DNA of 64,000 nucleotides from Escherichia coli (GTDB lineage Bacteria > Pseudomonadota > Gammaproteobacteria > Enterobacterales > Enterobacteriaceae), in assembly GCF_050920415.1 (NCBI RefSeq), contig NZ_CP169309.1. One strand, written 5' to 3'. How positions within the stretch are numbered: the stretch's first letter is position 1; each line of letters begins with the position of its first letter. Position numbers and translations under genes: made by a program. The notes below the pieces were generated by a model that was not told the origin of the DNA, did not search any database, and saw only the letters and a list, made by a program, of their open reading frames with translations. This document shows, in pieces, positions 28,387 through 29,322 of this stretch.

Positions 28387-29322
28387 AAGTATTTTATGAA
28401 GGAGCAACAGCATCGATTTTTATTTTGGAAAATAAATACGGCATACTCAACCTATTGGAGCCTGAACAATCCGGTGACTTCTGCGCTAATCGGGGACGTT
28501 TATAAGCACATATAATTGATACTATCTTCCTCCATCACAATTTCAGAAATGCACGTGTGATTTTTTTGCATCCGGCGTTTGGACTATGTGGAGTTCAAGA
28601 GTGGGAAAGTTACAAGAGGTTGAGGGGATAATTAAAGGGATGCTTATGACATTAGATATCCGGATAGGTACGGTTATCGTTGTTATTAAATCTAGTTTAT
28701 ACGTTAAGATGCAGCTACAGCAGAAATTGCCACTGTTAATTTTTTCATCGTGAGCCCTTTTATTTGAACTATTATTTAAAAATGATGTCACTGCACTACA
28801 AATACTCATCTAATCAATGAGATTATTTCAAGATGTAAGTTTTAGTTTCTCATTTAAATTGTGAAGTAGATCCCTATTTTTATCTGAACTGTTTCTATTG
28901 CGCACAATGCATGACTATTTTGTGAACGAATATAAATTTGGTAGTCAAATTATATTAAAGGTTGTTATTTATGATTGACTCATAATTTATTTATTTAATT
29001 TAAATAGCCTAAAAATAACCATGGAGATTATTTGCATGATATTTGTTTAGATTTATTAATGTAATTGAGGTGATTTTATTTAATACGCAATATAGCGCCG
29101 CTTGATATTAGTTCTATTTTTTTTGCGTAAGATAGATGAGACAAACTGAGACGCATAATGGTTTGCAAGCAAGGCTCTAATACTTTGATGTTGAGGATGT
29201 GATGGGGCATGTACGGGGCATAGTACAATGATGTCCATGCAGGTGTAGATAATCTCCAGGCTTATCCAGTGCGCTGTAAAACCCCGTCCTTCAGGGTGGG
29301 GATATAAGGCTCGGTTTTTCAC

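Follow-up and report, generated by a model that had tools for sequence, protein, structure and literature searches.

What is the AT-rich DNA that lies between an AraC-type regulator gene and an IS200/IS605 element at the variable fliE-yedK locus of Escherichia coli? In the 64-kb stretch of DNA analysed here (the window), this interval occupies positions 28387-29280 and is 100% identical to the same interval in E. coli MFDS1022581; the RefSeq annotation has nothing across it in that genome or in 24 other genomes among those listed. A first-pass annotation of the window had offered three readings: a degraded remnant of the K-12-type genes of the locus, a regulatory region, or a target-rich landing pad for the insertion sequence. 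The interval is very probably what a DLP12-like lambdoid prophage, formerly located between fliE and yedK, has left behind: an inert, non-coding scar. A prophage scar is an already known kind of feature, and a literature search found no description of the locus. The homologies of its pieces, the junctions between them, the order of events and the lack of a coding frame or known RNA are documented in turn.

The interval stands out by composition. Its GC content is 33.9%, against 50.2% for the whole window, which places it at the 0.3rd percentile among all 894-nt stretches, and the window-wide minimum falls at the same position; the trough itself covers 28749-29086, with 25.1% GC. Across the six frames, no stop-free run exceeds 88 amino acids, a length that 11% of shuffled sequences reach. 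The very low GC and the absence of a convincing open reading frame, both remarked on in the first-pass annotation, are thus borne out. Five open reading frames of 39-88 amino acids are present, and those of 55 and 88 amino acids cross the deletion junctions described below and are chimeras. None of the five (at least 39 amino acids) has a Pfam match, and their PHROG matches are all sub-threshold, with E values of 0.008 or worse. A conserved protein-coding frame was sought by homology, and only fragments of dead frames came to light. With an ORF length at chance level, no Pfam family and nothing but dead coding fragments, a protein-coding gene is rejected.

The same applies to a known small RNA or cis-regulatory RNA. 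A permissive scan of 26000-34000 with the Rfam covariance models, accepting E values up to 1, gives no match in 28387-29280; its matches are the group II intron and weak ones at the right end of the insertion sequence only. The Q-porin regions of K-12 and of the related type B genomes (described below) were also scanned with Rfam, and no curated small RNA family was found in them. RNA folding in sliding windows on both strands is unremarkable, the lowest z-score being -2.4 over 34 windows. A consensus scan finds promoter-like sites in the interval to be rarer than in shuffled sequences, and a terminator scan returns a single terminator-like site, located within the insertion sequence.

The surroundings of the interval point to its source. 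In MFDS1022581 the gene order is fliF, fliE, emrE, ybcL (frameshifted), ybcM, the gap, the IS200/IS605 element (tnpA, tnpB), a group II intron (ltrA), yedK, yedF and yedE. The left flank is ybcM (27589-28386, plus strand; named after the RefSeq annotation of MFDS1022581), which encodes an AraC-type regulator (Pfam HTH_18, PF12833, E 1.5e-16) and is the last intact gene of a DLP12-like emrE-ybcL-ybcM block. The right flank is an IS200/IS605 element with a Y1 transposase (PF01797, E 4e-41) and TnpB domains, so that the Pfam matches confirm both flanks as they had been read from the letters. In K-12, emrE, ybcL and ybcM sit elsewhere, in the cryptic lambdoid prophage DLP12, and the ybcL-ybcM segment of the window has 89.6% nucleotide identity to its DLP12 counterpart. 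The K-12 fliE-yedK locus itself contains yedL, yedN as a pseudogene, and intG, an integrase remnant that bears the annotation 'cryptic prophage PR-G'.

Homology to K-12 at the ends of the locus stops on the left at window position 26329 and on the right some 18 nt past the yedK stop codon. When 25001-34000 is compared with the K-12 interval by blastn, the matches are confined to fliE/intG (ending at 26329) and yedK (starting at 32457); the left match, 25002-26329, covers the fliE region including part of the intG pseudogene. An integrase remnant thus lies at one end of the island, and we infer that this intG fragment and the DLP12-like pieces come from one phage. No replication, lysis or structural phage genes are found between fliE and yedK. 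At its left edge, where the island abuts the K-12-type intG fragment at 26329|26330, lie the last bases of a renD fragment. The ybcK recombinase gene is missing between emrE and ybcL (26330-26885), with window positions 26867/26885 matching K-12 DLP12 positions 2655/4752. The ybcL gene (27027-27579), for a Raf-kinase-inhibitor-like periplasmic protein, is frameshifted into two overlapping open reading frames; RefSeq flags it as a pseudogene in MFDS1022581, and it is intact in XH990 and CFSAN067215.

The left part of the interval consists of three pieces, all on the plus strand and all in the order of DLP12. Positions 28387-28501 are homologous to the DLP12 ybcM-ylcH intergenic spacer, as part of a blastn match of 28303-28603 to K-12 DLP12 positions 6169-6469 at 82% identity. 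They are followed by a dead ylcH homologue (28502-28602), recognised by base-by-base alignment and three-frame translation against the 33-residue K-12 YlcH: ATA stands in place of its ATG start, and codon 6 is TAA. The third piece, 28603-28699, is the 3' remnant of a quuD-type Q antiterminator gene, comprising its last 32 codons. It is 81% identical to quuD at the nucleotide level (blastn, 28603-28701 against the K-12 quuD 3' end), and 18 of 30 residues are identical in BLASTP (E 7e-10); a mutation has turned its TAA stop into TTA. The ylcH/Q junction at about 28603 marks an older 1.78-kb deletion that removed ybcN-ninE-ybcO-rusA-ylcG together with the 5' part of quuD, and the same junction is found in type B genomes (L008 positions 7664/7674). 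Some genomes of the same arrangement span 930 rather than 894 bp over the interval, about 36 bp more, with the difference perhaps near 28676; the same cause may lie behind junction-spanning matches whose first query position is 30 (window 28677).

The second junction, at 28707|28708, is explained by comparison with type B genomes (e.g. O18:H1 CFSAN067215), in which fliE, emrE, ybcL, ybcM and the same fragments of ylcH and Q are followed by a 1083-nt porin gene that is intact, by the region upstream of it and directly by yedK, with no insertion sequence. Window positions 26001-28707 match the type B sequence L008 at 5062-7778 and window positions 28708-29266 match it at 9001-9555, with 97-98% identity on both sides of one clean gap of 1222 bp (L008 7779-9000). 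The deletion took the Q-porin spacer, which is the expected place of a phage late promoter, and the porin gene from codon 15 to the stop. No microhomology is present at the junction. The DLP12 small RNA IpeX, which we take to be encoded just downstream of nmpC, would then also fall inside the deleted 1222 bp.

What remains of the porin gene is its very beginning. Positions 28708-28748, on the minus strand, are the first 41 nt of a phage porin gene of the nmpC/lc type (signal-peptide codons 1-14), identical at 41/41 positions to K-12 DLP12, PA-2 lc and phage 434. The ATG at 28748 aligns with the annotated porin starts, and the remnant reads MKKLTVAISAVAAS, followed by a TAA created by the junction. 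Directly upstream of this start lies the orphaned porin upstream region (28749-29086, minus strand, 338 nt, 25% GC), a putative promoter and 5' UTR by its homology to DLP12, 434 and PA-2. The porin start and upstream region together (28708-29086) have 82% identity to K-12, 434 and PA-2, and they are matched by phages 434, PA-2 and 34 other phage records. Identity to DLP12 is uneven along the upstream region, with 90% over the proximal 147 nt and 71% over the distal 191 nt. The CAP/CRP site given in the PA-2 record (1363-1383) maps to window positions 28857-28877, where a predicted homologue is identical at 19/21 positions and keeps the TCACA half-site. A second OmpC-like porin gene occurs elsewhere in the window, at 3648-4841 on the minus strand, within 264-4841, at a position that we take to be that of the K-12 yedS pseudogene; it adjoins a decayed IS5 and three hypothetical genes (264-2714). 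Further low-GC stretches lie at about 600-1100 and 4550-4750.

To the right of the porin upstream region follow 160 island-specific nucleotides (29087-29246), contiguous with it in intact-porin genomes and 96% identical in type B. They have no homology to DLP12 or to phage sequences, and a search of phage and plasmid collections with 29087-29266 returned chance-level matches plus one chromosomal-like 'plasmid' record with the same locus. A comparison of K-12, type B and the window identifies the next 20 nt (29247-29266, minus strand) as the yedK 3' flank, chromosomal backbone common to K-12, which ends with the first two bases (TC on the plus strand) of the original yedK stop codon. This flank is now parted from yedK by the insertion sequence and the intron. 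The final 14 nt, 29267-29280, belong to the insertion sequence and are the only part of the interval to do so, as the L008 empty site and two other copies of the element show. The earlier reading of a non-coding gap up to 29280 therefore holds except for these nucleotides, the left end of the element being at 29267 and not at 29281.

Of 5426 complete genomes, 3858 match some part of the interval. About 2670 of the 5426 match at 90% identity or more, and these carry the fliE-yedK island in one of its forms; a further 1194 match at 80-90% identity only, which corresponds to the DLP12-type paralogue. At least 80% of the interval is held by 1032 of the complete genomes. The window differs from type B by the 1222-bp deletion and the insertion sequence. 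Because DLP12, PA-2 and 434 all have the Q-spacer-porin layout, type B is the ancestral form and that of the window is derived. Another common form, the third, has lost the rest of the interval through a further deletion, located at a short GCAGCTAC repeat, that starts at 28733 and reaches into the insertion sequence; a second deletion in this form extends into yedK. In other strains, IS1 or IS2 lies inside the interval. Since other strains interrupt the DNA in this way or delete it, and only 1032 of the 5426 have at least 80% of it, it looks dispensable.

These observations give the very probable history of the interval. Successive deletions in the prophage left its pieces in their original order: ybcM spacer, dead ylcH, Q 3' end, porin 5' end and upstream region. 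The low GC is inherited from the phage DNA, chiefly from the porin promoter region, and the IS200/IS605 element inserted later, after TTATC at the yedK stop codon. The interval appears to have no present function and to be drifting neutrally. Most AT-rich, horizontally acquired DNA in E. coli is bound and silenced by H-NS, and by analogy the interval is probably bound and silenced as well. H-NS has been listed at the emrE-ybcK and ybcK-ybcL spacers of K-12 DLP12 (PMC3946193), which is not direct evidence for the interval. Of the readings first proposed, that of a degraded remnant holds as to degradation and lack of coding; the source is a DLP12-like prophage rather than yedL-yedN. A regulatory region is correct in a historical sense only, 28749-29086 being the upstream region of a porin gene whose body is now deleted.

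The alternative that survives best is that this orphaned promoter still works, which we consider unlikely. It would drive CRP-dependent leftward transcription from about 28800, giving a short leader RNA that encodes a 14-residue peptide, bears a RybB seed match and reads on in antisense into ybcM from the 3' end of that gene. In favour of this, 145/146 positions (99%) of the proximal upstream region agree with intact-porin genomes, and the region is 90% identical to DLP12/PA-2; the ribosome-binding region is almost the same as where the porin is intact, the CAP site homologue is well conserved, and the porin remnant keeps its start codon and all of codons 1-14. The minus-strand porin remnant has a perfect 7-nt complement (CAGTGGC) of the RybB 5' seed at 28728-28734, with a predicted duplex energy of -16.6 kcal/mol, which 1% of shuffled sequences reach, and the scan shows no terminator-like site on the minus strand from 28700 to 28387. 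The nmpC mRNA is a reported RybB target in E. coli (PMC3333887). This conservation is, however, fully explained by recent descent from intact-porin genomes (98% identity overall), so that it is no sign of selection. The consensus scan finds no sigma-70-like site, and no strong match to the sigma-70 consensus, in the proximal region; the sole substitution against type B in the proximal 147 nt hits a candidate -10 element, as read by eye from the alignment; and many strains have interrupted or lost the DNA of the interval. That the CRP-site promoter fires and that its leader RNA, antisense into ybcM, also acts as a RybB decoy or as a regulator of the AraC-type gene is a shade less probable still. 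If true, a deletion scar would have been turned into a decoy for the sigma-E-dependent small RNA RybB, or into an antisense regulator of ybcM; an orphan porin leader would be a minor curiosity.

The insertion sequence lies beside the inert prophage scar, which remains the preferred reading. The left end of this element (29267-29322, plus strand) directly follows TTATC and has a subterminal hairpin, CCCCGTCC-TTCA-GGGTGGGG, at 29282-29301; the element continues to 30620 and is completed by 32453-32456. In type B, where the site is empty, the sequence is GGCTTATC|AAACAGG, and the occupied site in the window reads GGCTTATC|CAGTGCG...(IS)...GATGT[intron]CAAT|AAACAGG. The insertion splits the yedK stop codon (29262-29267 and 32453-32459), and YedK gains one residue (...QPVY*) and now terminates at a stop codon that comes from the element's right end. 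Three independent copies have TTATC immediately 5' of an identical left end; TTATC is taken as the target motif of the element because the two other copies are also preceded by it.

The element and the intron within it have peculiarities of their own. The group II intron (30621-32452) sits 4 nt short of the element's right end (...GGAGGATGT|intron|CAAT), matches the Rfam families RF02001 and RF01998, and carries ltrA (30997-32367) with RVT_1 and GIIM domains. The intron is absent from most genomes that carry this insertion sequence, XH990 among them. The tnpB gene of the window (29762-30580) encodes 272 amino acids, and its product is missing the central RuvC-core domain; compared with the 387-residue copy that strain EC195 carries at the same site, about 380 nt have been lost from within the gene. 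A weak RAGATH-18 match, below the gathering score, at 30507-30550 marks the likely omega-RNA region.

It is very doubtful that the AT-rich DNA is a preferred landing pad for insertion sequences, and for IS200/IS605 in particular. IS1, IS2 and IS200/IS605 have indeed inserted in or beside the interval in different strains, and TTATC is slightly denser there than the window average (5.7 against 3.2 per kb). Yet the 5 sites in 880 nt compare with about 2.8 expected, which is not significant, and the element used a TTATC at the yedK stop codon, in the conserved flank of that gene, which is backbone DNA outside the AT-rich part. Two further copies of the element lie in ordinary, unrelated genes, and an accumulation of insertions is expected of any dispensable DNA. 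The idea of a target-rich pad accordingly finds no meaningful enrichment behind it. The weakest reading, a remnant of K-12 yedL-yedN, shares with the interval its chromosomal position between yedK and fliE and is almost certainly wrong, refuted at the nucleotide level: the comparison with the K-12 yedL-yedN-intG interval that had been suggested yields (blastn, 28387-29266) nothing but the 20-nt yedK flank, and most of the interval, 29087-29246 excepted, is explained by DLP12-type homology.

The scar explains an unannotated AT-rich gap in at least 1032 complete E. coli genomes, and the value of this lies chiefly in correct annotation. The fliE-yedK locus emerges as a stepwise-eroded DLP12-like prophage, from porin intact through porin deleted to further deletions, and neither a new gene or RNA nor a landing pad is needed to account for the gap. 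The deletion series could act as a phylogenetic marker.

Compared with known systems, the interval has the marks of a lambdoid prophage remnant: homologous segments in prophage gene order, and loss of phage functions, with both ylcH and Q dead. Among its closest known relatives is the ybcM-ylcH...quuD-nmpC-essD segment of K-12 DLP12 (qsr'), in which the same pieces occur in the same order and orientation at 81-90% identity, with the emrE-ybcL-ybcM cargo to the left. Unlike DLP12, which is located at argU, the scar sits at fliE-yedK, and it has lost ybcK, ybcN-ylcG, the greater part of quuD, the body of the porin gene and all that follows from essD on. The DLP12 porin gene is interrupted by IS5, whereas the scar has no IS5 there.

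The porin part is closest in kind to the lc gene of phage PA-2 (GenBank J02580) and nmpC of phage 434, with the first 41 nt identical, 82% identity upstream and the predicted CAP site homologue at 19/21; unlike in these phages, no porin coding sequence follows codon 14. PA-2 has a second, distal CAP site, which lies beyond the homology breakpoint and is absent from the window. The type B island has the same old ylcH/quuD junction and near-identical sequence on both sides of the deletion; unlike the window, it has kept the full porin gene and the Q-porin spacer and has no insertion sequence at the yedK stop codon. K-12 PR-G (intG), with yedL and yedN, occupies the same chromosomal site and has the intG fragment beside fliE in common with the window, whereas the content between that fragment and yedK is unrelated in the two.
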